DNA of 32,000 bases from Massilicoli timonensis. Lineage in GTDB: Bacteria; Bacillota_I; Bacilli_A; Erysipelotrichales; Erysipelotrichaceae. The position numbers were made by a program, and so were the translations under genes. Under the pieces are notes generated by a model. That model was not told the DNA's origin. It was given only the letters and a program-made list of their open reading frames with translations, and ran no database searches. Below, one piece after another: positions 5,454-24,818 of the stretch. Position 1 is the first letter of the stretch. The number at the start of each line of letters is the position of its first letter. The DNA is taken from assembly GCF_900199515.1 (NCBI RefSeq), contig NZ_LT963434.1, positions 1,562,180 through 1,594,179 of the forward strand, in the 5' to 3' direction.

Positions 5454-6332
5454 TTACTGAATAGATTGTTCTTTGATGATTTGTATCATGTCGTCGCGCA
5501 GATCTTCGCGTGCTAATGCGAAATCGATCTGAGCCTTCAAAAAGCCGCGTTTATCGCCCACATCGTAGCGCTTTCCTTCAAAGTCGTAAGCGCAGACGTT
5601 TTCATGGGCGAGCAGACGGTTGATCGCATCGGTCAGTTGGATCTCGTTGCCGCTTCCCGGCTCCTGGGTTTCCAGCAGTTCAAAGATCTTTGGGGTCAGG
5701 ATATAGCGTCCTAAAATGGCGATGTCGCTTGGTGCTTCTTCCTGTTTCGGTTTTTCCACAAAACCTTTGACAGCGAAGCAGCGTTCGCTTAATGTTTCTT
5801 TCGGATCGATGATACCGTATTTAGAGACTGCGGCAGGCTCTACGCGCTGTACGCCGACTACGCTGCTTTGATTGACATGGAAGGCGTCGATGAGCTGTTT
5901 GGTTGCCGGATCGCCGTTTGGATTGACCACGATGTCATCGCCAAGCAGAATGGCAAACGGTTCATCACCAACGAATGTTTTGGCGCACAGAACGGCATGA
6001 CCTAAACCGCGGGGGTTTTTCTGACGAACGGAATAAATGTTAGCCATTTGCGAGATTTCCCGTACCATTTGCAGCTGTTCTTGACTGCCGGACGCCTCTA
6101 AGCGCTTCTCCAGTTCAAAGCTTTGGTCAAAATGATTTTCAATGCTGGCCTTATGCGCATTGGTAATGATCAGGATTTCTTCGATTCCGCTGGCTACGGC
6201 TTCTTCAATGATATATTGAATGGTCGGTTTATCCACGATCGGCAGCATTTCCTTAGGAATGGCTTTTGTTGCCGGCAGAAAGCGGGTGCCGAAACCGGCC
6301 GCGGGGATGATGGCTTTTTTCACTTGTTTCAT
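5454..6332 (-). CDS. galU: UTP--glucose-1-phosphate uridylyltransferase
   Basis: MKQVKKAIIPAAGFGTRFLPATKAIPKEMLPIVDKPTIQYIIEE is the canonical GalU N-terminus. The start was moved to the second ATG (6332) on the basis of homologous N-termini; the ORF-track start at 6359 remains possible. Confidence 0.9.
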   Translation of the reverse strand: MKQVKKAIIPAAGFGTRFLPATKAIPKEMLPIVDKPTIQYIIEEAVASGIEEILIITNAHKASIENHFDQSFELEKRLEASGSQEQLQMVREISQMANIYSVRQKNPRGLGHAVLCAKTFVGDEPFAILLGDDIVVNPNGDPATKQLIDAFHVNQSSVVGVQRVEPAAVSKYGIIDPKETLSERCFAVKGFVEKPKQEEAPSDIAILGRYILTPKIFELLETQEPGSGNEIQLTDAINRLLAHENVCAYDFEGKRYDVGDKRGFLKAQIDFALAREDLRDDMIQIIKEQSIQ

Positions 6333-6357
6333 AAACTTTATCACACTCCATGGCTCC

Positions 6358-6366
6358 ATTCTATCA
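6358..6366 (-). promoter_or_regulatory. Extended -10 element for galU
   Basis: The minus strand reads TGATAGAAT (TGnTAGAAT). It overlaps the ORF-track upstream ATG, which supports the shorter galU start. No convincing -35. Confidence 0.35.
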
Positions 6367-6462
6367 TATTTATGATAAATGACCAGTGGGAAAGTAACAA
6401 TTTATCGCAAAGTGTGTGATTCGGGAAAAGATGCAAATCAAAGGATAGAAAGCAAAGTGAGG

Positions 6463-8349
6463 ATGATTGAAGTGATCGCTTGGATATTGAATAACAAATT
6501 TTACCAGAAGTACCGGGAGTATTTTCTGTTGCTGCTGGATCTGTTTCTGGTATGTGTGTCGTTTCTGATCGCGTTCTGGACCAAAGAGGATTTCCTGTTC
6601 CGGTTTGAGAATCATTTGGCACTAAAAAATGTCTTATTGTGGGCCGTGCTGGTAATCGGTGTCTACACTGTGAATTTTTTGATTTTTAAGGTACATCGCA
6701 GTCTGTGGAAATACATTGGGCCGATGGAAGCGGTCAGACTATGTCTGGCTGATGGCTTTGCGACGTTGATCTTGATGGGGATTGCGACATTTATTACCAA
6801 AGACGGCTATTATACAAGTGTTATTTTTGTAGCCGGTTTATTGAATGTGCTTTTGATGCTGGTGATACGCTTCGGGTATCGTTTGTTGAGACGCTATCAG
6901 ATCGATGAAAAGAAAAATACGATCAATGCGCTGATCATCGGTGCGGGAGACGGCGGCTATATCCTGTTGAAGGAGCTTACGCAAAATGAAAGCTATCATG
7001 CGCATGTAGTCGGCTTTTTAGATGATTTTCGTCATGATAAGATCGTTGCGGGGAAACCGGTGCTGGGTACGACGGAAGATCTGGCAGAGGTTGTGAAAAA
7101 GCATCGGATCCAGATCGTTTTTATCGCGATTCCCAGCGCTTCAAAGAAAGATGTGCGCAGGATCTATGAAAAATGTCAGGATCTGAATTTAGAAACGAAG
7201 ATCATGCGGCGTGGAGAAACGCTGCTTAGCGATACGCCGGGGAAAGAAACCTATCCGGTAAAAGATATTGCGATCGAGGATTTGTTGGGACGTGGTGAGA
7301 TTCGCTTGAATCAACAGGAGATCCGCTCTTATATTACCGGGAAAGTCGTTGCGGTTACCGGTGCGGGCGGTTCGATCGGTTCTGAATTATGCCGGCAGAT
7401 CGTGAAGTTCCATCCGAAACGACTGGTTTTGATCGATATCAATGAAAATACACTGTATATGCTGGAACAGGAATTTAATCGGGATCGAATGCATGGCAAA
7501 CTGGATCCGGAAATCGAGATCGTTTCTTATATCGCTTCCATTCGGGAACGTAAGGCGATCAATGAAGTGTTTGAACAAAATAAACCTGAGGTCGTTTATC
7601 ATGCGGCAGCGCATAAACATGTTCCGCTGATGGAAACAAGGCCGCAGGAAGCGATCAAAAACAATGTGTTCGGAACGAACAATGTCATTTCCCTCTGTAT
7701 TGCGCACCATGTTTCGCGCTTCATCATGATTTCAACGGACAAAGCGGTCAATCCGACAAATGTAATGGGAGCGACGAAGCGAATGACGGAAATGATCTTG
7801 CAGGCAAATGGCAAGAACGGTATTACGAAGATGGCAGCTGTGCGTTTTGGCAATGTGCTGGGCTCAAATGGTTCGGTAATTCCGATCTTTCAGCAGCAGA
7901 TTGCCGAAGGTGGACCGGTTACGATTACCGATAAAGGGATCATTCGTTATTTTATGACGATACCGGAAGCGGCGCAGCTGGTATTGCAGGCAGGCTATTA
8001 TGCGGATAAGGGAGAGATCTTTGTTCTGGATATGGGAGAACCGGTAAAGATCTTGAATTTGGCAGAGAAAATGATTCGTCTGTCCGGTCTGAAGCCTTAT
8101 GAGGATATTGATATCGTAGAGATCGGTTTAAGACCGGGTGAAAAGATGTTTGAGGAACTGCGTCTAGATGGCGAAGATACGGTAAAGACAAAGAATGATT
8201 TGATCTTTATCAATAAAGTAATGGATATTTCAATGAGTGAGATCAATGCAAAATTGCATACATTAAGTGAAATGCTTGCGTGTGGCGCTACGCGGGAAGC
8301 GTATCGGGAAACGATGCTGGAGATGATCAAAGACGTTAGCGCCGGCTGA
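6463..8349 (+). CDS. Membrane-anchored CapD/EpsC/PglF-family polysaccharide biosynthesis protein (UDP-HexNAc 4,6-dehydratase type)
   Basis: About 4 N-terminal TM segments, then a Rossmann fold IIGAGDGG and the SDR motif VTGAGGSIGSEL, plus YHAAAHKHVPLME and ISTDKAVNPTNVMGATKR. The start is uncertain (ATG 6463 or GTG 6472 after GAGGA); the ORF-track start at 6379 is unlikely. Confidence 0.85.
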   Translation: MIEVIAWILNNKFYQKYREYFLLLLDLFLVCVSFLIAFWTKEDFLFRFENHLALKNVLLWAVLVIGVYTVNFLIFKVHRSLWKYIGPMEAVRLCLADGFATLILMGIATFITKDGYYTSVIFVAGLLNVLLMLVIRFGYRLLRRYQIDEKKNTINALIIGAGDGGYILLKELTQNESYHAHVVGFLDDFRHDKIVAGKPVLGTTEDLAEVVKKHRIQIVFIAIPSASKKDVRRIYEKCQDLNLETKIMRRGETLLSDTPGKETYPVKDIAIEDLLGRGEIRLNQQEIRSYITGKVVAVTGAGGSIGSELCRQIVKFHPKRLVLIDINENTLYMLEQEFNRDRMHGKLDPEIEIVSYIASIRERKAINEVFEQNKPEVVYHAAAHKHVPLMETRPQEAIKNNVFGTNNVISLCIAHHVSRFIMISTDKAVNPTNVMGATKRMTEMILQANGKNGITKMAAVRFGNVLGSNGSVIPIFQQQIAEGGPVTITDKGIIRYFMTIPEAAQLVLQAGYYADKGEIFVLDMGEPVKILNLAEKMIRLSGLKPYEDIDIVEIGLRPGEKMFEELRLDGEDTVKTKNDLIFINKVMDISMSEINAKLHTLSEMLACGATREAYRETMLEMIKDVSAG

Positions 8350-8357
8350 TATAGGAA

Positions 8358-8386
8358 TTGTTATAACCGCTCTAAAGTGGTATAAT
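8358..8386 (+). promoter_or_regulatory. Sigma-A-like promoter of the polysaccharide operon
   Basis: TTGTTA (8358-8363), a 17-nt spacer ending in TGg, then TATAAT (8381-8386). This leaves a leader of about 155 nt before ATG 8543. Confidence 0.55.
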
Positions 8387-8542
8387 AATTTAGATTGGTA
8401 TCTATGATGCCATTTACAGGATTATGCGGATTGAAATCGTCGCCCAGCGCGCGTTTCATGAAGGATATGGTCATTTCGTAACGGTCTATCTGATTTTTTT
8501 GGTTGGGTGGATAGGCGTAGCCTACCTGAAAGGAGTTTTTTT

Positions 8543-9061
8543 ATGGAAAACTGGTATGTGATACAGGTGAGAAGCGGGCAAGAGGAGCGGATCTTACGCA
8601 AGTGCCGCCTTTTGATCGACCATGCGGTTTTACATGATTGCTTTCTGCCGAAATGCGAGCGAATGAAAAAGATACGCGGACATTGGGAAAAGGTGGAGGA
8701 GCTGTTGTTTCGGGGCTATGTTTTTTTGATCAGTGATGATGTGCAGGCGTTGTATCATGAATTGTATAAAATTGATGATCTGACAAAGCTGCTGGGAAAG
8801 CATGGGGAGGATATTTATCCGCTGTATGAAAAGGAAGTGGCGTTTTTGAAGTCATTTGGCAGGATGGAGCATTTGGTCGAGATGTCTGTCGGCTATATGG
8901 AGGGAGAACGGATCGTTGTTATGGAAGGACCTTTGATGGGGAAAGAGGGGATGATCTGCAAGGTGGATCGCCATAAGCGGATCGCTGTGATTGAAGTAGA
9001 AATGTTTGGGAAGACGACGACCGCGAAGGTCGGACTTGAGATAGTGGCGAAACGCACATGA
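8543..9061 (+). CDS. Specialised NusG-family paralog (LoaP-like transcription antiterminator)
   Basis: 172 aa from ATG 8543 (AGGAG at 8531-8535). NGN motifs WYVIQVRSGQE and LFRGYVFL. C-terminal KOW GERIVVMEGPLMGKEGMICKVD. It sits at the head of a polysaccharide operon rather than in a secE-nusG-rplK context. Confidence 0.8.
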   Translation: MENWYVIQVRSGQEERILRKCRLLIDHAVLHDCFLPKCERMKKIRGHWEKVEELLFRGYVFLISDDVQALYHELYKIDDLTKLLGKHGEDIYPLYEKEVAFLKSFGRMEHLVEMSVGYMEGERIVVMEGPLMGKEGMICKVDRHKRIAVIEVEMFGKTTTAKVGLEIVAKRT

Positions 9062-9130
9062 TATGGATTTAAGCAAATAACAGTAAAATGATATAAGAAA
9101 AGGATAATCGCATATTATCCATAGGTAAGG

Positions 9131-9160
9131 AAGCAGTTGAGAGATCAGCTGTTTTTATTA
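9131..9160 (+). terminator. Candidate intrinsic terminator between the NusG paralog and the first biosynthetic gene
   Basis: CAGTTGA-gaga-TCAGCTG (9134-9151; 7 bp including one G-U, GNRA-type loop) followed by TTTTTATTAT. It is preceded by a separate perfect hairpin GGATAAT-cgcat-ATTATCC (9102-9120). Free energy was not computed. Confidence 0.5.
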
Positions 9161-9179
9161 TGGGTTAGGAGGAAATAGA

Positions 9180-10397
9180 ATGGAAAGTAGAACGATCCCT
9201 TTCAGTCCGCCGGATATCAGTGAAGCGGAGATTGCGGAAGTAGCGGAAGCATTACGTTCCGGATGGATTACAACAGGACCGAAAACAAAAGAATTTGAAA
9301 GACAGATTTCTGCCTATGTCGGCACAGAAAAAACAGTATGCCTGAACAGCGCAACTGCCGCAATGGAATTAACCCTGCGTTTGCTTGGGATCGGACCGGG
9401 AGATGAAGTAATCGTACCTGCCTATACTTATACGGCATCTTGCTCTGTCATTTGTCATGTTGGTGCGACACCGGTCATGATAGATTGTGCAAAAGACAGT
9501 TTTGAGATGGATTATGAACAAATGGCAAAGCGGATCAATGAAAAGACCAAAATGATCATACCGGTTGATTTGGCGGGTATCGTTTGCGATTATCGGAAGA
9601 TCTTTCAGATCGTAGAGGATAAACGCGCTTTATTTCATGCGAATCATGCGCTGCAGGCAGCATTTAACAGAATTATCGTCATGGCTGATTGTGCACATGG
9701 ATTTGGGGCAATGCAGAGTGATGTAAAAGCAGGGAATATTGCGGACTTTACGTGTTATTCTTTCCACGCCGTGAAGAATTTAACAACAGCTGAAGGCGGC
9801 GCGGTCACATGGAAAACCATACCGACAATCAGCAATGATTTTATTTATCAGCAATTTCAGCTGTTATCTTTGCATGGACAAACAAAAGATGCCTTGCACA
9901 AAAATCAGTTAGGCGCATGGGAGTATGATATTGTTGCACCGGCCTATAAATGCAATATGACAGATATTATGGCTGCCATCGGATTAAAGCAGTTAGAGCG
10001 ATATGAGGATCTGTTGAAGCGTCGTCATAAAATAATCCAAATGTATGATACAGCCTTGAAAGATTTGCCGGTAAAAGTATTGACACACAGCAGCAATCAC
10101 CACCGTTCCAGCGGTCATCTGTATTTTGTCAGAATCGAGGGGATCGGTGAAGAAACACGAAATGAGATCATTACCTCTATGGCAGAGGCAGGCATCGCAT
10201 GTAATGTTCATTATAAACCGCTGCCGATGCTTACCGCTTATAAAAACTTAGGATTTTCCATTGCAGATTTTCCAAATGCTTATCATCAGTATGAAAATGA
10301 AATCACGTTGCCGTTGTATAGTAAATTAAGTGATGAAGATGTTGCCTATATTCTGCAATGCTTCAAAGAGAGCTTGGAGAAGCATCAATGTTGTTAA
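9180..10397 (+). CDS. DegT/DnrJ/EryC1-family PLP aminotransferase (PglE/EpsN/WcfR-like, sugar 4-aminotransferase type)
   Basis: 405 aa. N-terminus FSPPDISEAEIAEVAEALRSGWITTGPK. Putative PLP-lysine context YSFHAVKNLTTAEGG. AGGAGG SD. The 3-prime end overlaps the next gene. Confidence 0.85.
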   Translation: MESRTIPFSPPDISEAEIAEVAEALRSGWITTGPKTKEFERQISAYVGTEKTVCLNSATAAMELTLRLLGIGPGDEVIVPAYTYTASCSVICHVGATPVMIDCAKDSFEMDYEQMAKRINEKTKMIIPVDLAGIVCDYRKIFQIVEDKRALFHANHALQAAFNRIIVMADCAHGFGAMQSDVKAGNIADFTCYSFHAVKNLTTAEGGAVTWKTIPTISNDFIYQQFQLLSLHGQTKDALHKNQLGAWEYDIVAPAYKCNMTDIMAAIGLKQLERYEDLLKRRHKIIQMYDTALKDLPVKVLTHSSNHHRSSGHLYFVRIEGIGEETRNEIITSMAEAGIACNVHYKPLPMLTAYKNLGFSIADFPNAYHQYENEITLPLYSKLSDEDVAYILQCFKESLEKHQCC

Positions 10398-11074
10398 AAA
10401 AATGGGATGATCTTCCGGTCTTCATGAAAAATGATGAAGTAAGAAAATATTATGATGTGCTTTCTAAAAAACGCGTCCACTTATGGTTGAAGCGTTTATT
10501 TGATATAGCAGCATCTTTTATTTTGCTCATTTTGTTATCACCGGTTTTTTTGTTACTGGCTATATGGATCAAAATGGACAGTCGGGGATCAGTTTTTTAT
10601 CGACAGGAACGAGTAACGCAGTATGGGAAGACATTTCGGATCTTCAAGTTTCGAACAATGGTAACGAATGCTGATCAGATCGGTGCATTGATTACCGGTC
10701 AAAACGATACACGCATTACAAGGGTGGGGGCAAAGATCAGAAAATCCCGTTTGGATGAGATACCACAGTTGTTGAACATTTTACGTGGAGAAATGAGTTT
10801 TGTGGGGACGCGACCGGAAGTACAAAAATATGTTGATTGCTATTCTGATGAGATGAAAGCAACACTGCTGATGCCGGCCGGGGTTACGTCTTTAGCAAGT
10901 ATCAAGTACAAAGATGAGGATGCATTGTTGGAAGCGGGAAGCATGAAAGGCAAGACAATCGATGAAATATATACGAAAGAGATATTGCCACAGAAGATGA
11001 AATATAACTTGGAGTATTTAAGGGAGTTTTGTTTTGTAAAGGATTTGAGCTTATGTGTGAAAACGGTGGTGTAA
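10388..11074 (+). CDS. Small monotopic phosphoglycosyl (undecaprenyl-phosphate sugar) transferase, PglC/WcfS/EpsL-like
   Basis: Bacterial sugar transferase motifs KRLFDI, one re-entrant hydrophobic helix, FKFRTM and RLDEIPQLLNILRGEMSFVGTRPE. ATG 10388 lies after GGAGAAG and overlaps the aminotransferase stop by 10 nt. Confidence 0.85.
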   Translation: MLLKKWDDLPVFMKNDEVRKYYDVLSKKRVHLWLKRLFDIAASFILLILLSPVFLLLAIWIKMDSRGSVFYRQERVTQYGKTFRIFKFRTMVTNADQIGALITGQNDTRITRVGAKIRKSRLDEIPQLLNILRGEMSFVGTRPEVQKYVDCYSDEMKATLLMPAGVTSLASIKYKDEDALLEAGSMKGKTIDEIYTKEILPQKMKYNLEYLREFCFVKDLSLCVKTVV

Positions 11075-11078
11075 TACA

Positions 11079-12284
11079 ATGAAAGTATGGTTAATACAGG
11101 CAAATGAGCCAATACCGGCGGTAGATAAAAATCAAAGACCTTTTCGTACCGGTATGCTTGCAGAAGCATTACTGAAACAGGGGCATGAAGTGGTATGGTT
11201 TGCCGCAACATTTGATCACTACACAAAAACACAGCGATTTTCTGTTAATCAAATGGTGCAAATTGAGGACAATTTTCAAATTCAATTTTTATATGGCTGC
11301 CGTTATCAAAAAAATATTTCTTTACTGCGAATAAAAAATCATATCCAAATTGCTAAACAATTCAAACGCGTATCAAGGAAGCTGCAACAGCCAGATTTAA
11401 TTTATTGTTCATTCCCGCCAATCTATCTTGCCAAAAAAGCACTCAGTTACGCAAATCAAAAAAATATAAAATTTGTATTAGATGTTCGAGATTTATGGCC
11501 AGAAGTATTTGAACGAGCTGTTCCTAAAAAAATGTATTGGGTTACTAATCCGATTTTTCGCTACTTACATCGTTTAGTAAATCAATTATATCGTAATTCA
11601 TACGCTGTAAATGCTGTTTCGAATGAATGTGTTAATTACGTAATAGAAAAATCCGGAAGAAAAAAGAAAAAATATGATAGCGGCTATTTTATTGGCTTTC
11701 CGAATCGCTATCAATTAAGTGCAGAAGAGAGTTTGATAGCCAGAGCAGAAAAAGTACAAATTATTTTTGTAGGTACATTAAGTAATCAGATCAACTATGA
11801 TTTGATATGTAAGATAGCAATGAAACTTAAAAACATTGATTTTATTATTGGTGGCGATGGACCGCTTTCAGAAGATTTCCATACGTTGGCAAAAGATCTC
11901 CCTAATATCCAATTCAAAGGGTGGTTAGATGCAAATACAATTCAACAATATATGAAACAAGCATCCTTTGCGTTGATCCCATATTATGATACTTTTGATT
12001 TTCAATTAGGCGTAGGAAATAAATTTGCAGAAGCACTTTGCTATGCTTTACCACCGATTGTATTGTGCAATGGTGTAATGAAAAATCTTATATTAAATAA
12101 TCAATGTGGTGTTTTTGGAAAGGATGCCCATGATGTAGCATATCAAATCACTGAGCTTTTAGATGATGACATAAAATACCAAAATTATGTTAAAAATGCA
12201 CATCATCTTTATCAGGAACAATTTGATTCTAGCAAGATTTATCCAAATTTAGTAAATGATCTAGTGAAATTACAGGAGGAATAG
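11079..12284 (+). CDS. Glycosyltransferase (GT4/GT-B-like)
   Basis: 401 aa. The C-terminal half has a GT-B-like pattern (IIFVGTL..., GGDGP, ALIPY). The assignment rests on general architecture only. Confidence 0.6.
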   Translation: MKVWLIQANEPIPAVDKNQRPFRTGMLAEALLKQGHEVVWFAATFDHYTKTQRFSVNQMVQIEDNFQIQFLYGCRYQKNISLLRIKNHIQIAKQFKRVSRKLQQPDLIYCSFPPIYLAKKALSYANQKNIKFVLDVRDLWPEVFERAVPKKMYWVTNPIFRYLHRLVNQLYRNSYAVNAVSNECVNYVIEKSGRKKKKYDSGYFIGFPNRYQLSAEESLIARAEKVQIIFVGTLSNQINYDLICKIAMKLKNIDFIIGGDGPLSEDFHTLAKDLPNIQFKGWLDANTIQQYMKQASFALIPYYDTFDFQLGVGNKFAEALCYALPPIVLCNGVMKNLILNNQCGVFGKDAHDVAYQITELLDDDIKYQNYVKNAHHLYQEQFDSSKIYPNLVNDLVKLQEE

Positions 12285-12287
12285 ACA

Positions 12288-13367
12288 ATGAAATATGCAC
12301 TGATCGGATGTGGGAGAATATCCCCGAATCATATAGCAGCCGCAATACAAAACGAACTGGAAATCATCGCGGTATGCGATATCGTAAAAGAGAACATGGA
12401 AAACTTATTAAGCAGATTTACATATGATTTCCATCAAACAAACCGATATACAGATTATAAAGAGATGATCCTAAAGGAACAGCCGGACCTAGTCGCAATC
12501 GCAACAGAATCCGGCCTTCATGCAGAGATCGCTCTTTTTTGTATCGCTCATAAAGTCAATGTCATCATCGAAAAACCGATCGCTATGAATATGAAAGATG
12601 CACGCATGATCTGTGAAGCAGCGGAAAAGTATGATGTCGTTGTATGTGCGAACCATCAGAACCGCTTTAATAAATCCATTCAGAAGATCCATGAAGCAAT
12701 GGAAGAAAAGCGATTCGGGAAACTGTTTCATGCAGCTGCTCATGTGAGATGGAACCGCAATAAAGGTTATTATGATCAGGCCAAGTGGCGCGGTACTTGG
12801 GTAAATGACGGAGGCTGTCTGATGAACCAATGTATTCATAATGCCGATCTATTAAGATGGATGATGGGAGATGAAGTGGAAGAAGTCATGGCTTACACCG
12901 ATAATCTGAATCATGATTATATTCAGGCAGAAGATCTGGGATTGGCTGTGATCAAATTCAAGAACGGCGCTTATGGACTATTTGAAGGAACGGTCAATGT
13001 CTATCCGAAGAATTTGGAAGAAACGCTGTATATCTTTGGCAGTAAAGGGACAGTGAAAGCCGGAGGGAAATCAGTGAATATCATTGAAGAATGGGAATTT
13101 GCGGATGAAAAAGAGGATGCGGAAGCAGTAAAGCAAGCGCATAGTGAAAATCCGGAGAATGTCTATGGCTTCGGACATGATCCGTTATATGCAGATGTGA
13201 TCGGTGCGATCAAAGAACACCGTAAACCATTGGTAGATGCAGAAGCAGGGATGCGTGCATTGGAATTGATCTTGGCGATCTATGAATCGGCGGCGACGGG
13301 GAAAGCGGTAAAGCTGCCGTTAGGCGATATTGCTTCTACTGATTATGAAGGAAGATTCGGTGAATAA
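12288..13367 (+). CDS. Gfo/Idh/MocA-family NAD-dependent sugar oxidoreductase (WbpB/WlbA/GnnA-like)
   Basis: N-terminal Rossmann fold YALIGCGRISPNH and the EKP motif (VIIEKPIAMN). AGGAGG SD. Context with an aminotransferase and a sugar dehydrogenase. Confidence 0.75.
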   Translation: MKYALIGCGRISPNHIAAAIQNELEIIAVCDIVKENMENLLSRFTYDFHQTNRYTDYKEMILKEQPDLVAIATESGLHAEIALFCIAHKVNVIIEKPIAMNMKDARMICEAAEKYDVVVCANHQNRFNKSIQKIHEAMEEKRFGKLFHAAAHVRWNRNKGYYDQAKWRGTWVNDGGCLMNQCIHNADLLRWMMGDEVEEVMAYTDNLNHDYIQAEDLGLAVIKFKNGAYGLFEGTVNVYPKNLEETLYIFGSKGTVKAGGKSVNIIEEWEFADEKEDAEAVKQAHSENPENVYGFGHDPLYADVIGAIKEHRKPLVDAEAGMRALELILAIYESAATGKAVKLPLGDIASTDYEGRFGE

Positions 13368-13368
13368 G

Positions 13369-14076
13369 ATGAAGTTTACTTATGATGCTTACCGTAAACT
13401 GCTCTTAACTTTCAAAAACAACGGTTATCAGGATATTTTTTATCAGGAAGCGGATATGACAAAAAAGCAGGTCATTTTAAGACATGATATCGACAATTCG
13501 ATAGAAGATGCCTTAAAAATAGCGGAGATAGAGAAAGAAGTAGGTATGAAGAGTACCTATTTTGTATTGATCGGTACAGAATTTTATAATCTTTTTACAA
13601 AGCGTTCCAAAGAGATGATCGAAAAAATAATCGCCTATGGACATTCCGTGCAGTTACATTTTGATGTTACTAATTATGACATCAGCTCAAAAGAGGATCT
13701 GATCCAAATGATCGAGAAAGAAATGCGAATACTGGAGATGATTACGAAACAGCCGGTCCATGTCGTGTCTTTCCATAGACCTTTGCGAGAATATTTTAAT
13801 GAAACGATTTCAAATTCTTTCATTTCTGCTTATGACAAACAGTTTTTCAGCGACTTCAAGTATGTCAGCGATTCACGAAGAAACTGGAAAGATGACCCTT
13901 ATGAAGCAGTGGCGAATGGTTACCGACATATCCAGTGTTTGACACATGCTTTTTGGTATGATGAAAGGGAAAGGACCGCACATGACAAGATAGCGTTATT
14001 TAAGACAAAATGTGCAGATAAAACGCAAGAAGCATTATATCAAAACATAACCGATTTAGATGAATTGATAAAGTGA
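13369..14076 (+). CDS. Hypothetical protein, possibly a divergent polysaccharide-deacetylase-like beta/alpha-barrel
   Basis: 235 aa from ATG 13369. ILRHDIDNS...A..IAEIE...G.KSTYFVL resembles the RHDVD/STYF pattern I associate with divergent CE4-like deacetylases. This is a weak recollection and needs an HMM search. Confidence 0.35.
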   Translation: MKFTYDAYRKLLLTFKNNGYQDIFYQEADMTKKQVILRHDIDNSIEDALKIAEIEKEVGMKSTYFVLIGTEFYNLFTKRSKEMIEKIIAYGHSVQLHFDVTNYDISSKEDLIQMIEKEMRILEMITKQPVHVVSFHRPLREYFNETISNSFISAYDKQFFSDFKYVSDSRRNWKDDPYEAVANGYRHIQCLTHAFWYDERERTAHDKIALFKTKCADKTQEALYQNITDLDELIK

Positions 14077-14087
14077 GAAGGTGATGA

Positions 14088-14975
14088 ATGATGGATGCAT
14101 ATGATGTCCTAAACTATCTTAATGAAAAGAAAGTCCATTATCGGGTAAATGGATTAAAGCAGATTTTGATCACACAGTATTGTCCGTTAAAAGAATTAAA
14201 GCCGCATGCGATTACATGGTTGAAGCAATATGATGCGAAAATTACCGAAGCAAACCCGGAAACATTGTTCGTGTGCAAAATAGAAGATCATACAGAGCAT
14301 GGCGATAACGTCATCTTTGTAGAATCCTTAAAGAGAACGTTTTTTCGGATCATTCGTGATCTTTTCAACCTTGATGCAATGAAAGAAAGTAAGATCGAAC
14401 CAAGTGCAGTCGTGCTATCCAAACAAGTAGGAGATGCGGTTTATATCGGACATCATACTTTTATTGATAAGGAAGTAACGATCGGAGACGGTACGATCAT
14501 CATGCATAATGTTACCATTCAAGGAAAAGTCGTGATCGGTGATGACTGTTTGATCGAATCAGGTGCCGTGATCGGCGGCTGTGGGTTTGGTACTTATCTG
14601 GATGAAGAAGGACATCCTGAATTAGTGCCGCATCCGGCAGGTGTAACAATAGGCGATCATGTTAAGATCTTTGCCAATACATGCATCGTGAGAGGCTGTC
14701 TCTCTGATACGATCATCGAAGATCATGCAATGGTAGATAATCTGTGTCATATTGCACACAATGTTCATTTACATGAAAACGTACAGGTCGCGGCTTGTTC
14801 CGAGATTTCCGGCAGTGCAACGATAGGAAGAGACAGTTGGATTGCACCGGGGGTAACGATCTTAAACGGTATCCATGTTGGAGAAAATGTTTATACGGGA
14901 ATCGGAAGCAATCTGGTAAAAGATGTGCCGGACCATACTTTGGTATATGGGAATCCGGCAAAGTCGAAAAAATAG
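14088..14975 (+). CDS. LpxD-type left-handed beta-helix UDP-sugar N-acyltransferase, paralog 1
   Basis: A non-LbH N-terminal domain of about 100 aa, then hexapeptide repeats. IGGCGFGTY...VTIGDHVKIFANTCIVRGCLSDTIIEDHAMVDNLCHIAHNV aligns with E. coli LpxD IGSDGFGY...[41 protein letters not shown], including the catalytic His context. Confidence 0.7.
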   Translation: MMDAYDVLNYLNEKKVHYRVNGLKQILITQYCPLKELKPHAITWLKQYDAKITEANPETLFVCKIEDHTEHGDNVIFVESLKRTFFRIIRDLFNLDAMKESKIEPSAVVLSKQVGDAVYIGHHTFIDKEVTIGDGTIIMHNVTIQGKVVIGDDCLIESGAVIGGCGFGTYLDEEGHPELVPHPAGVTIGDHVKIFANTCIVRGCLSDTIIEDHAMVDNLCHIAHNVHLHENVQVAACSEISGSATIGRDSWIAPGVTILNGIHVGENVYTGIGSNLVKDVPDHTLVYGNPAKSKK

Positions 14976-14984
14976 GAGGTAGTT

Positions 14985-16127
14985 ATGCAATTCATAGACT
15001 TAAAAGCACAATATGAAGTGTTAAAAGATGAGATCGATGCAAATATACAAAGTGTATTGGATTCAGGGCAATACATGATGGGAGATCATGTAAAACAATT
15101 GGAAAAAGAATTAGCGGAATATGTCGGAACAAAGCATTGTATTACCTGTGCAAACGGGACCGATGCCTTACAGCTTGCTTTGATGGTCTGGAACATCAAA
15201 GCAGGAGATGCGGTATTCGTTCCGAGCTTTACCTTTTATTCTACTGCCGAGGTCGTATCGCTTCTAGGCGCTACACCGATCTTTGTAGATACCAATCCGA
15301 GAACCTTTAATATTGATACAGTAAAATTAGATCAGGCGATCCAAAAAGTAAAACAGGAAGGGAAATTAACACCGAAGGTCATCATTCCTGTCGATCTGTT
15401 TGGTCAACCGGCTGATTATGAAAGCATCAGACGAATTGCCAATAAACATAAGCTGTATGTATTGGAAGATGGTGCACAGGGATTTGGCGGAACGATCGAT
15501 GGAAAGAAAGCATGTTCATTCGGCGATATTTCCACTACCTCTTTCTTCCCGGCAAAACCGCTTGGCTGTTATGGAGATGGCGGAGCGCTCTTTACGGATT
15601 CAGATGAATACTATGAGTTGCTTACTTCTTTGCGTGTCCATGGGAAAGGAACATTCAAGTATGACAATGTACGAGTGGGAATGAACTCACGTTTAGATAC
15701 ATTACAAGCAGGTATCTTGTTACCGAAGTTAAAGGCATTCAAAGACCATGAGATGGAAAAGCGCAATCTCTTTGCGAAGCAGTATACGATGCTGTTAAAA
15801 GAGCATGTCATCACTCCATATGTGCCGGAAGGGATGGAGTCCAGCTGGGCGCAGTACACGATCCTGCTTCGATCAGAAGAGGAGCGCACCTTCATACAAG
15901 AGCGATTGAAGAAAAAACAGATTCCGACAATGATCTATTATCCGAAGCCGCTTCATCAGCAGAGCGTCTATCAGGATTACGATTTTAACTTAGATGAGTT
16001 GAAAGAATGCGAGCATGTGGCAAAGGTTTGTTTGAGTTTGCCGATGCATCCATATTTAGATACAGAAACAGTGAATTATATTGCCAATAGTTTGATTGAA
16101 TGCTTAAAGGAGTATCGCCATGTTTAA
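14985..16127 (+). CDS. DegT/DnrJ/EryC1-family PLP aminotransferase (WbpE/WlbC/GnnB-like, sugar 3-aminotransferase type)
   Basis: 380 aa. MQFIDLKAQY start typical of this subfamily. TTSFFPAKPLGCYGDGGA (PLP-Lys context). AGGAGG SD. Confidence 0.85.
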   Translation: MQFIDLKAQYEVLKDEIDANIQSVLDSGQYMMGDHVKQLEKELAEYVGTKHCITCANGTDALQLALMVWNIKAGDAVFVPSFTFYSTAEVVSLLGATPIFVDTNPRTFNIDTVKLDQAIQKVKQEGKLTPKVIIPVDLFGQPADYESIRRIANKHKLYVLEDGAQGFGGTIDGKKACSFGDISTTSFFPAKPLGCYGDGGALFTDSDEYYELLTSLRVHGKGTFKYDNVRVGMNSRLDTLQAGILLPKLKAFKDHEMEKRNLFAKQYTMLLKEHVITPYVPEGMESSWAQYTILLRSEEERTFIQERLKKKQIPTMIYYPKPLHQQSVYQDYDFNLDELKECEHVAKVCLSLPMHPYLDTETVNYIANSLIECLKEYRHV

Positions 16128-17010
16128 GTTATCGGAATTATTTGAAGAAGTCCATCAAGATGGGTGCTTTGAAGTATTAGGAATTCTAGATTCCAAAACA
16201 TCAAGACCGATGCTGACCTTTATTGAAAGCGAAAAGCATATCGATCAGCTCATGCAGAAAAATAATGTTACCTGCGTCATCACGAATGAGGAAACATACC
16301 ACAGTCTTCCAAAAGAACATACTTTCGGTGTTGTTATCAGCAATGATCCCCGTAATACTTTTTTTCGCCTGCATAATTCTTTAAGTATAGATGCGTGCTA
16401 TAAAAGAGAACAATTCCCAACTAAGATCGGAACAGATTGTCAGATATCGCCGCTTTCCTGTATCGCAGAACATAACGTTGTGATCGGCAATCATGTCAAG
16501 ATCGAAGAATTTGTTTCTATCAAAGAAAATGTTGTGATCGGAGATAACTGCATGATTCGCAGCGGCACTGTTATCGGCGGATGTGGCTTTGAATTCAAGA
16601 AAGATGGCGATGCACAGTATCGGGTCGAGCATTTAGGCGGTGTTATCATCGGTCATGACGTTGAGATCCAGCATAACTGTGCGATCGATAGAGCCGTATA
16701 TCCGTGGGATGATACGAAGATCGGTGATTATTCAAAATTGGATAATCTGATCCATATCGGACATGCAGCTAAAATAGGGAATAATGTCATGATGCCGGCC
16801 TTATCAGTGATCGGCGGCAGAACGGAAATAAAAGATCACGCCTGGATCGGAATCGGTAGTGTGATCAGGAATGGATTAGTAATTGGCACGCATGCCAGGA
16901 CCAATATGGGAGCAGTGGTAACAAAGGATGTTGCAGATCATCAAGCTGTTACAGGCAATTTTGCAATTGAGCATAAGAAGTTTATAGAAAAGCTAAAAAA
17001 GGAGAATTGA
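16120..17010 (+). CDS. LpxD-type left-handed beta-helix UDP-sugar N-acyltransferase, paralog 2
   Basis: Same architecture as 14088-14975. IGGCGFEF...VIIGHDVEIQHNCAIDRAVYPWDDTKIGDYSKLDNLIHIGHAAKIG. The start ATG overlaps the aminotransferase stop (ATGTTTAA). Confidence 0.7.
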   Translation: MFKLSELFEEVHQDGCFEVLGILDSKTSRPMLTFIESEKHIDQLMQKNNVTCVITNEETYHSLPKEHTFGVVISNDPRNTFFRLHNSLSIDACYKREQFPTKIGTDCQISPLSCIAEHNVVIGNHVKIEEFVSIKENVVIGDNCMIRSGTVIGGCGFEFKKDGDAQYRVEHLGGVIIGHDVEIQHNCAIDRAVYPWDDTKIGDYSKLDNLIHIGHAAKIGNNVMMPALSVIGGRTEIKDHAWIGIGSVIRNGLVIGTHARTNMGAVVTKDVADHQAVTGNFAIEHKKFIEKLKKEN

Positions 17011-17015
17011 GGGAA

Positions 17016-18329
17016 ATGAAAGAACTACTATTGAATAAAATCGCAAATAAAGAAATCGTTGTCGGTGTAGTCGGATTAGGGTATGTAGGACTGCCTTTGG
17101 CAGTGGAAAAAGCAAAGGCAGGATTTCAGACGATCGGCTTTGATGTGCAAAACGAAAAAGTGGACATGGTCAATGCAGGAAAAAACTATATCGGCGATGT
17201 TGTGGATGATGATCTTTCGGATTTGGTAAAAAACGGCATGTTAAGTGCAACGACAGATTTCAGTTTCATCAAAGATGTGGACTTTGTGGCTATTTGTGTT
17301 CCGACACCGCTTGATACGCATCAGCAGCCGGACATCAGTTATGTAAAAGCAAGCTCGGAAGCAATTTCAAAACATTTGAGAAAAGGAACGATGGTCGTAT
17401 TGGAGTCCTCTACTTATCCGGGAACGACTGAGGAATTGGTAAGACCGATCTTAGAAGAAGGATCAGGACTGATATGCGGTACTGATTTTTATTTAGGCTT
17501 TTCACCGGAACGAGTAGACCCGGGGAATGCAGTCTATCACACAAAAAATACACCGAAAGTAGTCGGAGCAATCGGGAAAGATGCGACGGAAGTCATTGCG
17601 GCCATGTATCGTGCGGTGCTGGATGGCGATATCCATGAAGTGTCCTCTCCGGCAGTAGCAGAGATGGAGAAGATCTTGGAAAACACATATCGGAATATCA
17701 ACATCGGATTGGTGAATGAGATCTGTATGTTATGTGAAAAGATGGGGATCTCGGCATGGGAAGTGATCGATGCAGCGAAAACAAAGCCATTTGGTTATCA
17801 GGCGTTTTATCCGGGACCCGGATTAGGCGGACATTGTATCCCGCTTGATCCATATTATCTGACATGGAAGGCTAGAGAGTATGGGTTTCATACATCTATG
17901 ATCGAGAACAGTATGATCATCAATGACAAGATGCCGGAATACTGTGTAGAAAGATGTTACAAGGTGTTAAACAAGCAGAAGAAAGCGATGTCAGAAGCGA
18001 AGATATTGGTGCTTGGTGTGGCATATAAGAATGATATAGATGATTATCGGGAAAGTCCGGCATTGAAGGTAATCGAATTATTGAAGGCAGAGGATGCGGA
18101 TGTGGATTTCTATGATCCGTATATTCCGACATATCGTTATAAAGGAGAAAGCTATACGGGAATTAAGGGAATCGATCCGGAAGTGTTACAGGGATATGAT
18201 CTGGTAGTGATCACGACCGCACATAAATCATATGATTTGGAAATGATCCAGAAGAACAGCAAGGCCATCTTTGATACGAGAAATGCGATGAAAGATTATT
18301 TTGCATATGATAATGTTGAATTGCTTTAG
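17016..18329 (+). CDS. UDP-N-acetyl-hexosamine 6-dehydrogenase (WbpA/WbpO/TviB-type nucleotide-sugar dehydrogenase)
   Basis: Rossmann fold VVGLGYVGLPLA, catalytic-Cys motif GGHCIPLDPYYL, and GFSPERVDPGN. ATG 17016 preferred over the ORF-track TTG 17007. Confidence 0.8.
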   Translation: MKELLLNKIANKEIVVGVVGLGYVGLPLAVEKAKAGFQTIGFDVQNEKVDMVNAGKNYIGDVVDDDLSDLVKNGMLSATTDFSFIKDVDFVAICVPTPLDTHQQPDISYVKASSEAISKHLRKGTMVVLESSTYPGTTEELVRPILEEGSGLICGTDFYLGFSPERVDPGNAVYHTKNTPKVVGAIGKDATEVIAAMYRAVLDGDIHEVSSPAVAEMEKILENTYRNINIGLVNEICMLCEKMGISAWEVIDAAKTKPFGYQAFYPGPGLGGHCIPLDPYYLTWKAREYGFHTSMIENSMIINDKMPEYCVERCYKVLNKQKKAMSEAKILVLGVAYKNDIDDYRESPALKVIELLKAEDADVDFYDPYIPTYRYKGESYTGIKGIDPEVLQGYDLVVITTAHKSYDLEMIQKNSKAIFDTRNAMKDYFAYDNVELL

Positions 18330-18361
18330 CAGATTAAGGATTTAATGCCATGGAGAAAAAC

Positions 18362-19309
18362 ATGACTTCCTTAAAAACAGGTATTGTAATTTTGAATTAT
18401 AATACAAGTGAAGAAACGAAAAAATGTGTTTACTCAATTCGTAAATTTGAAAAGCAATATACAATATATATCGTAGATAACTGTTCATCAGACCATTCAT
18501 GGGATGATTTATATCATACTTTTCATAATGATCACGATATAGTGTTACTCCGCGCTTCCCGAAATGGTGGTTATTCATACGGAAATAATATCGGTATTAC
18601 AAAATGTTTAGAAGACAACTGTGATATTATTTATATAGTTAATAGTGATATAGAGCTATTGAATAGTGCATTTACGATCATGACCAAAACACTGATCAAT
18701 AATCCGCATTGTATGATAATAGGGCCTTCTGTAGTAGATAACCATGGAAATGAAGTGCAACTGGCAAAAAAGAAGTTAACTCTAAGAAATTTTATTTATG
18801 GACGACATCCTTTTTGTAATATTTCCTTTTTTAAGAAGAAAGTTGATCGTTTGTATGATATACCTGTAAATCAGCGTTTTTTTATTTTTCAAGGCATGGC
18901 TTCCGGTTGCTGTTTTGGAATACGGGCAACTGACTTTAAGCAAATCCACTATTTTGATGAAAATGTATTTCTTTATTACGAAGAAGATATTTTAATTTGT
19001 AAACTTGCTTCTCATGAACGAAAGGCTATTATTGATCATGACGCAAAAGTTTGGCATAAAGAAAGTGTATCGACTAAAAAATCTGGGTTTGCTTTTATCA
19101 GATATCATCGCTGGAACAGTGTAACATATTATTTATACGAATATTTACAACTTAATTTTTTTATTAGGACATTGATATTTATTTGGAACACAGTTACATG
19201 GCTGCTGCTTTCAATACGATCAAGGACATACCGAGAATTGCTGCATGATTTTATAAAAAAGCAAACAAAACTATTGTTTAAGCGATACGATACATCTATT
19301 AAAAAATAA
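18362..19309 (+). CDS. Family 2 glycosyltransferase
   Basis: GIVILNYNTSEETKKCVYSI, VDNCSSD and NGGYSYGNN are classic GT2 N-terminal motifs. ATG 18362 (after GGAG) preferred over 18350. Confidence 0.7.
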   Translation: MTSLKTGIVILNYNTSEETKKCVYSIRKFEKQYTIYIVDNCSSDHSWDDLYHTFHNDHDIVLLRASRNGGYSYGNNIGITKCLEDNCDIIYIVNSDIELLNSAFTIMTKTLINNPHCMIIGPSVVDNHGNEVQLAKKKLTLRNFIYGRHPFCNISFFKKKVDRLYDIPVNQRFFIFQGMASGCCFGIRATDFKQIHYFDENVFLYYEEDILICKLASHERKAIIDHDAKVWHKESVSTKKSGFAFIRYHRWNSVTYYLYEYLQLNFFIRTLIFIWNTVTWLLLSIRSRTYRELLHDFIKKQTKLLFKRYDTSIKK

Positions 19310-19329
19310 CGAAGAAGGCGGTATTAGAC

Positions 19330-20409: not shown

Positions 20410-20429
20410 CATGAAATGAGGTGAGTAGT

Positions 20430-21539: not shown

Positions 21540-21551
21540 ACGGAGGTAATC

Positions 21552-22658: not shown

Positions 22659-22717
22659 GCTGAGCAGCATGAAATAGGGCAACACTAAAATTCGTTTTTT
22701 AGGAAAGGAAGGATATT

Positions 22718-24187: not shown

Positions 24188-24467
24188 TTACAGAAAACAT
24201 ATATTCACAAAAAGATAGATTATTCATGTTGATTCACGTATTTTCATGCATTCAACTCAGTCAAGTTATGTGTTAAAGGGCAATTTTAACTCTAAAACAC
24301 TCATTTTTACCCTTTTTCATACATAATTTTTGCAATCAAAACAGCAAACCCCCTAAAAAAACAAAAAAATCAACTTTTTCTTGTAATTCGACAAAATACG
24401 CGTGTAAAAATCTGGAAATGTAGTATAGTAATAGATGTGTTCAGCTGCTAAGGGGAGGTTTAGAGAA

Positions 24468-24818
24468 ATGAATATTAGAATAGTACAAATGTTACGCATC
24501 TTAGGAATACCAGCACACGTGAAAGGCTATGAATACATTAAGACAGCTATTATGTTGATGTACGACGATGATTCTTATCGCTACAACATAACCAAACGAT
24601 TGTATCCGAAAATTGCAAAGATATACGGAACTACACCGGCAAGAGTTGAACGCGCAATGCGGCATGCAATCGAAATTGCTTTTACAAGCGGGAATATTGA
24701 ATTGCTGTATAAGATCTTCGGTTATACGATTGCCTATCACAGATCAAAAGCAACAAATTCGCAGTTCATTATTACTATACTAGAAACGCTAACACTATCT
24801 GACTTAAGGTTTTCGTAA
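24468..24818 (+). CDS. Stand-alone Spo0A C-terminal (DNA-binding effector) domain protein, with no receiver domain
   Basis: 116 aa from ATG 24468 (GGAGG 9 nt upstream). LGIPAHVKGYEYIKTAI...ITKRLYPKIAKIYGTTPARVERAMRHAIEIAFTSGNIELLYKIFGYT...KATNSQFI is colinear with B. subtilis Spo0A residues ~150-260 (IGVPAHIKGYLYLREAI...[47 protein letters not shown]...KPTNSEFI). Confidence 0.8.
   Translation: MNIRIVQMLRILGIPAHVKGYEYIKTAIMLMYDDDSYRYNITKRLYPKIAKIYGTTPARVERAMRHAIEIAFTSGNIELLYKIFGYTIAYHRSKATNSQFIITILETLTLSDLRFS

Follow-up and report, generated by a model that had tools for sequence, protein, structure and literature searches.

A LoaP-type leader with a conserved ops-like box and a proposed antitermination gate in a polysaccharide locus of Massilicoli timonensis

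To our knowledge, experimental work on LoaP has been limited to two Bacillus polyketide operons, whose leaders hold a hairpin and a terminator. The RNA hairpin of the B. velezensis dfn and mln operons is the defined recruitment element of LoaP, needed in vivo as well as in vitro, and hairpin-dependent antagonism of NusA has been demonstrated at a NusA-dependent terminator (PMC12691694). In dfn, the hairpin, a pause and the terminator are placed in one 417-nt leader with no open reading frame between them. In Bacteroides, variable capsule loci carry the gene of the NusG paralog UpxY at the head or close to it, followed by upxZ as the second gene; the UpxY site, opsX, consists of a hairpin with a GCG(A/T)AGC box right behind it, a short distance before the paralog start codon, and the terminators are reported to lie within the 5' leader, upstream of upxY (PMC11685472). 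RfaH of E. coli is likewise a specialized NusG paralog serving long envelope-polysaccharide operons, but it is encoded elsewhere, acts on a DNA element only and works mainly against Rho.

The locus described here belongs to Massilicoli timonensis (GCF_900199515.1, NZ_LT963434.1, positions 1,562,180-1,594,179); this whole stretch of 32,000 nt is referred to below as the window. A capD-like gene, a promoter, a leader, loaP, a hairpin, a terminator-like site and 14 polysaccharide genes follow one another on the + strand. As in dfn, an intrinsic-terminator-like site lies downstream of a LoaP-type hairpin and ahead of a long biosynthetic operon. However, the target is a polysaccharide rather than a polyketide locus, the leader has about 150 nt instead of 417, and loaP itself is placed in cis between hairpin and terminator. 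The terminator thus comes after the paralog gene, unlike in Bacteroides, and the position of upxZ is taken by a DegT aminotransferase gene, with no UpxZ-like second gene. The features, in window coordinates, are as follows.

6379-8349, + strand: CapD/PglF-like polysaccharide dehydratase gene (Pfam Polysacc_synt_2, E 4e-117)
8358-8386, + strand: predicted sigma-70-type promoter with extended -10, TTGTTA-17-TGgTATAAT (consensus scan 10/12, TG present)
8419-8425, + strand: GGATTAT box within a conserved A-rich element, 10-20 nt 5' of P1 (related leaders)
8432-8458, + strand: P1, dfn-type hairpin, UGAAAUCGUCGC-CCAGC-GCGCGUUUCA (shared frame, covariation, covariance model)
8469-8474, + strand: conserved single-stranded GGUCAU box between P1 and P2 (columns 43-49 of leader alignment A3)
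8484-8512, + strand: P2, second leader hairpin, variable in sequence, covarying (RNAfold -10.6 kcal/mol)
8513-8524, + strand: ops-like box AGGCGTAGCCTA, core GCGTAGC at 8515-8521 (conservation, ops match)
8530-8535, + strand: Shine-Dalgarno sequence AAGGAG of loaP (read from the sequence)
8543-9061, + strand: loaP, NusG paralog of 172 aa with NGN and KOW domains (NCBIfam and Pfam models)
9102-9120, + strand: palindromic hairpin GGATAAT-CGCAT-ATTATCC (perfect 7-bp stem, weak, -4.4 kcal/mol)
9131-9159, + strand: intrinsic-terminator-like hairpin with loop GAGA, core stem 9134-9151 (folding, hairpin-plus-T-tract scan)
9167-9172, + strand: Shine-Dalgarno sequence AGGAGG of the first gated gene (read from the sequence)
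9180-24187, + strand: 14 polysaccharide biosynthesis genes (ORF list, domain matches)
24966-25018, + strand: first strong downstream terminator (hairpin of -16.5 kcal/mol followed by TTTTTATT)

The 172-aa protein is a specialized NusG paralog of the LoaP branch. It matches the NCBIfam model antiterm_LoaP (NF033641), the family to which B. velezensis LoaP also belongs, with 179 bits against a cut-off of 125 and over 166 of 166 model positions. The scores with the models of housekeeping NusG (TIGR00922, 68.7 bits), UpxY (NF033644, 54.8 bits) and RfaH (38.2 and 29 bits) remain below the respective cut-offs of 135.7, 100, 144.5 and 124. The preliminary description of this DNA, made from the letters alone, had recognized an NGN+KOW protein and proposed an HMM search and phylogeny against NusG, RfaH, UpxY and LoaP; both the domains (Pfam NusG NGN domain at E 5e-11, plus KOW) and the LoaP assignment are confirmed. 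Among PDB entries, 8f5g is the best match (E 9e-20), and homologues carry the name LoaP in Erysipelotrichaceae and Lachnospiraceae. The RNA-binding residues of BvLoaP are E40, R41 and I143.

Transcription is predicted to begin near 8393, giving a 5' leader that extends to 8542 and has about 150 nt, close to the ~155 nt given in the preliminary description, whose promoter is also the one found by the consensus scan. Several related loci have extended -10 boxes at a similar place. At the position of the GGATTAT box, related leaders carry AAAGGAUAAU, AAAAGAUUAUC or ACAAAAUCUU. The same heptamer occurs in the native dfn leader, but there on the 3' side of the hairpin, whereas in M. timonensis it precedes P1; the essential 10 nt on the 5' side of the dfn hairpin are CACCTATTAA, without a GGATTAT box (PMC12691694). 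In the dfn leader, the bracketed "pause site" starts with CCGUCAUGG, which may be related to the GGUCAU box. Pairing of this box with the AUGGC(GAAGC) region in a pseudoknot was considered and dropped, as a mutual-information scan gave no covariation support.

Leaders of this kind, about 100 nt long, occur widely among gut Erysipelotrichaceae, Lachnospiraceae and Eggerthella and are absent from Rfam. No Rfam family reached its gathering threshold over the 32-kb window, and at E values up to 10 the matches within 8300-9250 were at chance level (E at least 0.17), all of them inside the loaP reading frame. A covariance model built without the window matches 8428-8535 with 53.8 bits (E 2e-12), the only strong match in the 32 kb. 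The next-best match, considered as a second copy of the leader, has 14.7 bits (31829-31920) and is probably due to chance.

P1 is proposed as the LoaP recruitment element on the basis of its likeness to dfn. The preliminary description had regarded the recruitment element of polysaccharide-linked LoaP-type proteins as undefined and had pointed to a compact leader and terminator pair in the gap behind loaP. The dfn/mln hairpin is already defined, however, and a hairpin of the same type is found in the 5' leader, while the gap holds none. The frame AAUCG...C(G/A)CGUU is common to the dfn hairpin oligo (GGCCAAUCGCGUCUUCGGCACGUUGCC), the native dfn leader (UUUCAAUCGCUGUUUCGGGCACGUUGAAGA; sequence from the supplement of PMC12691694), the window (UGAAAUCGUCGCCCAGCGCGCGUUUCA) and the related locus L007 (GAUCGUUGCAUUGUCACGUC), and all of these hairpins share one folding topology. 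Of 80 loaP loci, about 75 have the P1 pattern upstream of loaP. A scan of metagenomes with the dfn hairpin oligo returned seven chance matches, all in coding regions of high-GC organisms.

The structure is further supported by covariation. With the curated P1+P2 pairing, 90.8% of cells pair, compared with 27-48% when the partners are slid; changes on both sides are seen in 13 of 16 pairs, and none of 500 shuffles reaches the observed values. The register given by RNAalifold for upper P1 (U13-G24) was replaced by C14-G24 with G15-C23, which comprises 46 CG, 4 UA, 1 UG and no unpaired cases and explains why C-to-U and G-to-A changes are coupled. In most relatives the loop has four bases, NNNG (UUUG, UUCG, AUCG), and the G is present in 50 of 51 sequences. 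In the window, CCAG is followed by CG, probably forming a pentaloop (CCAGC) closed by C-G rather than a UNCG tetraloop, which differs from the UUCG loop of dfn.

Compared with dfn, additional conserved parts are present: P2, the invariant GCGNAGC box and, behind loaP, the GGATAAT palindrome. Both-side changes occur in all five pairs of P2. The core of the ops-like box begins 2 nt past P2, and the loaP ATG (8543) lies 19 nt past the end of the box at 8524. In 71 of 77 loci, GCGNAGC occurs no more than 200 nt 3' of P1, mostly at 49-76 nt, compared with a background frequency of 0.28 per kb, and the GCG(A/T)AGC core is invariant in an alignment of 51 leaders. The box matches the B. fragilis PSE ops (CTGCGAAGCATA), the PSA ops (CCGCGTAGCGCA) and the E. 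coli ops core (GCGGTAGC), and the 10-mer GCGAAGCATA is common to the Bacteroides PSE ops and many LoaP leaders. At the level of sequence and geometry, the UpxY-type order of a hairpin, then GCGNAGC, then the paralog gene is present here. The UpxY leader features covered from PMC11685472 include no dfn-type RNA hairpin. With E. coli ops only the GCG-N-AGC core is shared: the 12-nt element GGCGGTAGCGTG is not present in the leader, and the box is one nucleotide shorter in the loop. We found no earlier report of P2 and a GCGNAGC box in LoaP leaders in the literature covered, which includes PMC12691694 and PMC11685472. P2 with GCGAAGC and a U-run was also considered as a general terminator upstream of loaP; this combination is seen only in some loci (e.g., L058, L051 and L017) and not in the window.

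We tentatively suggest, as a possibility that we hold somewhat less probable than its opposite, that polysaccharide-associated LoaP uses a two-part loading signal: the P1 RNA hairpin and, ~55 nt downstream, an ops-type P2 + GCG(A/T)AGC, which would form a mini-hairpin in the non-template DNA and pause the polymerase as at RfaH ops or UpxY opsX. The box may also have a role at the RNA level. Contact of LoaP with non-template DNA was explicitly left open by Jermain 2025 (PMC12691694).

Between loaP and the first biosynthetic gene there is a 118-bp gap (9062-9179), which folds better than its shuffled versions (z = -3.1; 1 of 200 shuffles folds equally well). The size of the gap, the 7-bp hairpin and the terminator-like hairpin with its U-tract are all located where the preliminary description had placed them, and the folding that it proposed recovers the latter. 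The terminator-like core stem has three G-C pairs and -7.4 kcal/mol, or -12.2 when extended by A-U pairs over 9130-9155, and the U-tract consists of T5 at 9152-9156, followed by 9158-9159. A simple consensus terminator scan missed 9134-9160, whereas the hairpin-plus-T-tract scan listed it. The T-tract is separated by only about 10 nt from the next ribosome-binding site, and neither inspection nor the promoter scan revealed a promoter between the T-tract and 9180. We propose, from this arrangement of sequence elements, that 9131-9159 is the LoaP-controlled gate.

That the paralog is encoded upstream of a terminator-like site, as claimed earlier, is not peculiar to this genome. When sites within 125 nt of the stop codon are counted, 44 of 76 non-redundant loaP stops are followed by a terminator-like site, compared with 63 of 325 stops of other ORFs at these loci. 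The order of loaP, terminator and biosynthetic genes thus recurs across loci, and in four of them the terminator keeps its position with a different stem sequence. The other 32 of the 76 have no post-loaP terminator under the criteria used, many of their gaps being only 2-50 nt.

The genes on both sides identify loaP as part of a polysaccharide locus. All 14 downstream genes have polysaccharide-type domains: they include DegT aminotransferases, of which one, DegT/PseC-like, comes immediately after loaP, as well as a sugar transferase, glycosyltransferases, an oxidoreductase, acetyltransferases, a UDP-sugar dehydrogenase, an EpsG-like polymerase and a Wzx-like flippase. Their same-strand run to 24187 is as described previously, with gaps of at most 59 bp. 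The description of loaP as heading the operon holds for these genes but not for the upstream side, where the capD-like gene lies on the same strand, ending 9 nt before the -35 hexamer; in 46 of 69 related loci, too, a homologue on the same strand immediately precedes loaP. The capD-like gene is part of a conserved left flank that is identical across the metagenome contigs L001-L006. This flank stops at 9174-9177, 2-5 nt 3' of the AGGAGG and just before the ATG, where the contigs diverge (from 9176-9177, AAGG in L005 and L006, TAGA in the other five). From the ATG onward the genes differ, so that an identical P1 leader, loaP and gap stand ahead of different cassettes.

We consider it probable that the locus contains a LoaP processive-antitermination module acting in cis, in which LoaP would most likely override the weak terminator and switch on about 15 kb of sugar-polymer genes. 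Transcription would start at the 8358-8386 promoter, probably with some read-through from the capD-like gene, which may blur the gate. It would produce the structured leader, about 150 nt long, in which P1 represents the kind of hairpin bound by LoaP in dfn/mln. The polymerase would pass P2 and the GCGTAGC box, where we infer a pause, transcribe loaP and then meet the weak intrinsic terminator. With too little LoaP, most transcripts would stop there, at 9152-9159, and yield LoaP alone. Once accumulated, LoaP would bind P1 on the nascent RNA and load onto the polymerase, and, by analogy with dfn, counteract NusA-stimulated termination, which is likely the mechanism in both systems; read-through into the 14 genes would follow, the polymerase staying terminator-resistant up to about 25 kb. 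Because loaP lies upstream of the terminator, its own transcription is independent of read-through. The layout is thus a gate that depends on the dose of LoaP, without obvious positive feedback, and not the self-reinforcing switch suggested before. Genuine positive feedback is to be expected solely where, as in some Lachnospiraceae loci, a strong terminator is also placed between the hairpin and loaP.

Two alternatives assign a different role to the gap. It is very improbable that the 9102-9120 hairpin is the LoaP site, with the terminator as its target, so that both parts of a self-reinforcing switch would lie within 118 bp. The gap does show the hairpin-then-terminator order of the dfn leader, and GATAAT-N5-ATTATC, which has a single exact copy in the window, is found with a conserved stem sequence between loaP and the terminator in L009, L011 and L029 as well. 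However, this hairpin lacks the AAUCG...CGUU frame, which P1 has; the same palindrome lies 5' of P1, not beside the terminator, in L017-L021, and it is missing from most loaP loci. Moreover, read-through would give no feedback on a loaP gene that is upstream of the terminator. The terminator might instead merely end or insulate a short loaP transcript, with the biosynthetic genes served by leaky read-through or a LoaP-independent signal and LoaP acting mainly elsewhere in trans. The weakness of the terminator agrees with this, as do the action of LoaP in trans on two B. velezensis operons (PMC12691694) and the genomes having two loaP loci with identical leaders (L018/L019, L020/L021). We nevertheless regard it as unlikely, given the short distance to the ribosome-binding site with no promoter predicted there, the leader, loaP and gap that move as one conserved flank before different cassettes, and the single leader copy detected by the covariance model in the 32-kb window.

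Recruitment might also be mainly DNA-based as for RfaH and UpxY, with P2 and GCGTAGC (8484-8524) read on the non-template strand and P1 being auxiliary. The invariant core, the covarying hairpin that stops 2-3 nt 5' of it, and the match in sequence and hairpin-then-box geometry to the B. fragilis PSE/PSA ops and the E. coli ops core all point in this direction. Conversely, the RNA hairpin is essential for B. velezensis LoaP, which showed no specific binding to ssDNAs taken from the 50-nt stretch that precedes the dfn hairpin, a set without an ops-like sequence (PMC12691694). The dfn leader has only a degenerate AUGCGAAACAUUC, and the protein encoded here falls below the cut-offs of the RfaH and UpxY models. 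We therefore consider a mainly DNA-based recruitment quite unlikely and favor P1 as the recruitment element.

Placing the regulator inside the unit that it controls, between the RNA site and the terminator, appears to be the common arrangement in gut Firmicutes. The regulator thereby occupies the conserved margin of a capsule or exopolysaccharide locus, and strains exchange the biosynthetic cassette of that locus. Should the proposed gate operate, the expression of surface polysaccharides would depend on the dose of LoaP in many gut commensals. A functional ops-like box would mean that loading of NusG paralogs through RNA and through DNA represents two parts of a single ancestral signal. A two-part signal would tie LoaP, the branch that reads RNA, to the RfaH and UpxY branches, which read DNA, and would make the ~100-nt leader a compact model for NusG-paralog loading in Gram-positive bacteria, one in which contact of LoaP with non-template DNA becomes directly testable.

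At the distal end, the preliminary description had reported no further terminators, which is roughly correct for the 14-gene run, where only weak internal candidates are found (e.g., 13540-13560, an 8-bp stem followed by TTTGTATT), but the strong terminator at 24966-25010 lies beyond it. This terminator is likely the end of the transcription unit. It is preceded by an ORF at 24435-24818 with a Spo0A_C domain only.

The known LoaP mechanism probably operates here in a new cis-arrangement. The preliminary description had assigned the regulator to the LoaP branch of NusG paralogs and proposed a terminator gate, both of which stand, but its views on the site and novelty of the recruitment element, on a "self-reinforcing" circuit and on loaP "heading" the operon do not. 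The protein passes the NCBIfam cut-off for LoaP alone (179 bits vs 125), scoring below the cut-offs for NusG (68.7 vs 135.7), UpxY (54.8 vs 100) and RfaH (38.2 vs 144.5). Database searching found relatives at 45–67% identity in Erysipelotrichaceae, Lachnospiraceae and related gut taxa, and the named ones are called "antiterminator LoaP". The nearest solved structure is 8f5g (E 9e-20; housekeeping NusG chains, about 4e-9), probably the LoaP–RNA complex. The promoter, the NGN+KOW protein, the 7-bp hairpin and the 14 same-strand downstream genes described earlier were all recovered, as listed here.

6379-8349, + strand: CapD/PglF-like dehydratase gene (656 aa), its stop 9 nt before the -35 hexamer
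8358-8386, + strand: promoter-like site TTGTTA-17-TATAAT with TG upstream, among the region's best matches in a consensus scan
8543-9061, + strand: loaP ORF, 172 aa, NusG NGN domain and KOW motif (ORF call, domain search)
9102-9120, + strand: perfect 7-bp hairpin GGATAAT-N5-ATTATCC, though weak (-4.4 kcal/mol)
9134-9151, + strand: core stem of a terminator-like hairpin, -7.4 kcal/mol (-12.2 with its A-U extension), then T5 at 9152-9156
up to 24187, + strand: 14 genes with gaps of at most 59 bp (ORF call, domain searches)

Domain searches assign the 14 genes to two DegT aminotransferases, a Bac_transf sugar transferase, glycosyltransferases, an oxidoreductase, two hexapeptide acyltransferases, a UDP-sugar dehydrogenase, an EpsG-like protein and a Wzx-like flippase.

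The preliminary description considered the recruitment element undefined, which is out of date. In B. velezensis, LoaP is known to require a small RNA hairpin of the dfn and mln operon leaders, which it binds with sub-micromolar affinity, and it acts by antagonizing NusA at an intrinsic terminator that depends on NusA (PMC12691694). The dfn hairpin oligo is GGCCAAUCGCGUCUUCGGCACGUUGCC, and the native dfn leader includes (UUUCAAUCGCUGUUUCGGGCACGUUGAAGA) (PMC12691694 supplement). The matching hairpin in the window, P1 (UGAAAUCGUCGCCCAGCGCGCGUUUCA at 8432-8458), lies in the 5' leader upstream of loaP and has the AAUCG...CGUU frame in common with dfn. Among 80 loaP loci taken from reference genomes for comparison, about 75 have the pattern ATCG-YYG-N-loop-C(G/A)CGT at a distance of 96–402 nt ahead of loaP; in two Sharpea genomes it lies downstream of the gene. 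The dfn hairpins and those of the loaP-locus family share one predicted fold topology. In Sharpea porci (L032) and S. azabuensis (L038), P1, the second leader hairpin P2 and the GGCGAAGC motif all lie about 20 nt past the loaP stop, which leaves loaP outside the unit it would control.

P1 is part of a longer structured leader. In an alignment of 51 non-identical leaders (A3), the order is P1, a conserved GGUCAU box, the sequence-variable hairpin P2 and an invariant GGCG(A/T)AGC box; the lower stem of P1 covaries freely, and its upper part is almost invariant. RNAalifold recovered both hairpins. In the curated P1+P2 structure, 90.8% of cells pair, compared with 27–48% when the 3' partners are slid, and both partners have changed in 13 of the 16 pairs; none of 500 shuffles reached the observed pairing and covariation values. 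A covariance model trained on 50 leaders, with the window excluded, matches the window at 8428-8535 (53.8 bits, E 2e-12) and has no other comparable match in the 32 kb, and a search of the window against Rfam 15 gave no family matching the leader. We regard the conserved leader with its ops-like box as unreported and as the most interesting lead, although two primary LoaP papers may already cover leader conservation. The second-best match of the covariance model (31829-31920, 14.7 bits, rough E 0.013), which contains GGCGACGCAT, lies in AT-rich sequence near the window end, overlaps a minus-strand ORF and is probably due to chance.

The ops-like sequence, AGGCGTAGCCTA at 8513-8524, lies 2 nt past P2; most relatives carry (A/G)UGGCGAAGCAUAC there. 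In 71 of 77 loci a GCGNAGC core follows P1 on its 3' side at a distance of no more than 200 nt, mostly at 49–76 nt, against a background of 0.28 per kb. RfaH ops sites have GCGGTAGC in common, and UpxY sites have YGCGNAGCR hairpins in non-template DNA, as in the Bacteroides sequences of PSE (ttggctgagaaaaagagtctcacccaaCTGCGAAGCATA) and PSA (...CCGCGTAGCGCA) (PMC11685472). The Bacteroides UpxY sites match the LoaP leaders in their order (hairpin, 2–3 nt, GCG(A/T)AGC), in the 10-mer GCGAAGCATA and in the short distance to the start codon of the paralog. Since the 7-mer is invariant while the P1 and P2 stems covary freely, the pattern points to sequence-specific recognition of the box, as non-template DNA, RNA or a pause signal, rather than simple RNA pairing. 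For B. velezensis LoaP, single-stranded DNAs from the 50-nt stretch preceding the dfn hairpin were bound only nonspecifically, and the authors left open whether LoaP contacts DNA in the active complex (PMC12691694). In the dfn leader, the bracketed pause region, CCGUCAUGGCUGUUUUCGGGCAUAUU, opens with GUCAU (PMC12691694 supplement), comparable to the GGUCAU box; about 17 nt past it comes a small hairpin and then only a degenerate AUGCGAAACAUUC, resembling AUGGCGAAGCAUAC. Both likenesses to the polysaccharide leaders are weak. The same pause region also nearly repeats the apical portion of the dfn hairpin (CUGUUUCGGGCA).

The predicted fold of the 118-bp gap between loaP and the first biosynthetic gene is more stable than that of shuffled sequence (z = -3.1). 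A consensus terminator scan did not list the site at 9134-9156; a purpose-built hairpin-plus-T-tract scan detected it. The proposed architecture, a regulator gene just before a terminator ahead of biosynthetic genes, recurs: of 76 non-redundant loci, 44 have a hairpin with a T-tract no more than 125 nt from the loaP stop, compared with 63 of 325 other plus-strand ORF stops in the same loci. In the window and loci L009, L011 and L029, the terminator position is kept but the stem sequences are unrelated, as selection for structure predicts. In the window the T-tract and the next ribosome-binding site are only about 10 nt apart, and the promoter scan predicted no promoter between them; therefore, the downstream genes must be reached via read-through. 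The weakness of the terminator would fit the NusA-dependent class that LoaP counters in dfn.

The palindrome at 9102-9120 is not a LoaP-type hairpin. Its stem (GATAAT/ATTATC) is conserved but its position varies: it lies between loaP and the terminator in the window, L009, L011 and L029, and about 25 nt 5' of P1, at the leader 5' end, in L017–L021. Half-sites (GGATTAT, GATTATC or GATAAAT) precede P1 in other loci, and at 8419-8425 in the window, whereas in dfn GGATTAT comes after the hairpin.

Because loaP lies upstream of the terminator, its own transcription needs no read-through, and the circuit would be a dose-dependent gate rather than an obvious positive-feedback loop. Positive feedback would be expected in five Lachnospiraceae loci (L047, L054, L055, L061, L064), where extra strong terminators (-23 to -34 kcal/mol) sit between the leader motif and loaP, 100–260 nt upstream of the gene, so that LoaP would have to read through to express itself. 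Within the gene at 13330-14076, a clean 8-bp hairpin, GTAGGTAT-GAAGA-GTACCTAT followed by TTTGTATT (13540-13560), is a possible internal terminator for LoaP-modified polymerase to bypass.

Because a capD homologue adjoins it upstream, loaP is the head of the gated part only, not of the whole locus. Of 69 loci with sufficient flank, 46 have such a homologue immediately upstream of loaP on the same strand, and in some of these the capD stop codon is just 17–21 nt away from the P1 ATCG core. In the window, the annotated start codons of the divergent galU-like and capD-like genes (5454-6379) are only 19 nt from each other; other contigs call these starts differently (296 vs 301 aa; 625 vs 656 aa), so that neither the true starts nor the capD promoter is certain.

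Six metagenome contigs (L001–L006) encode the identical LoaP within a nearly identical galU-capD-leader-loaP-gap flank, with six variable columns of about 845. The flanks stay alike until the final bases ahead of the next start codon (window 9174-9182), and gene content beyond differs in three of the six. A cassette-exchange breakpoint appears to lie at the ribosome-binding site just past the terminator, and the loaP module forms the conserved border of a polysaccharide locus with variable content. A Bac_transf gene comes directly next in L005 and L006, and other glycosyltransferases in L003. Two loaP loci per genome, about 27–32 kb apart in opposite orientation, occur in Merdibacter massiliensis (L018/L019) and Merdibacter sp. 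(L020/L021); within each pair the leaders and the 5' portions of loaP are identical, the downstream genes differ and capD lies upstream of one copy only. Cross-talk or inversion between the two polysaccharide loci is a possibility.

A 127-aa ORF at 24435-24818, 247 nt past the flippase gene, encodes the Spo0A C-terminal DNA-binding domain alone (Pfam Spo0A_C, E 4e-35). It may share a transcript with the polysaccharide operon; the region's first strong terminator (24966-25018, -16.5 kcal/mol, then TTTTTATT) directly follows it.
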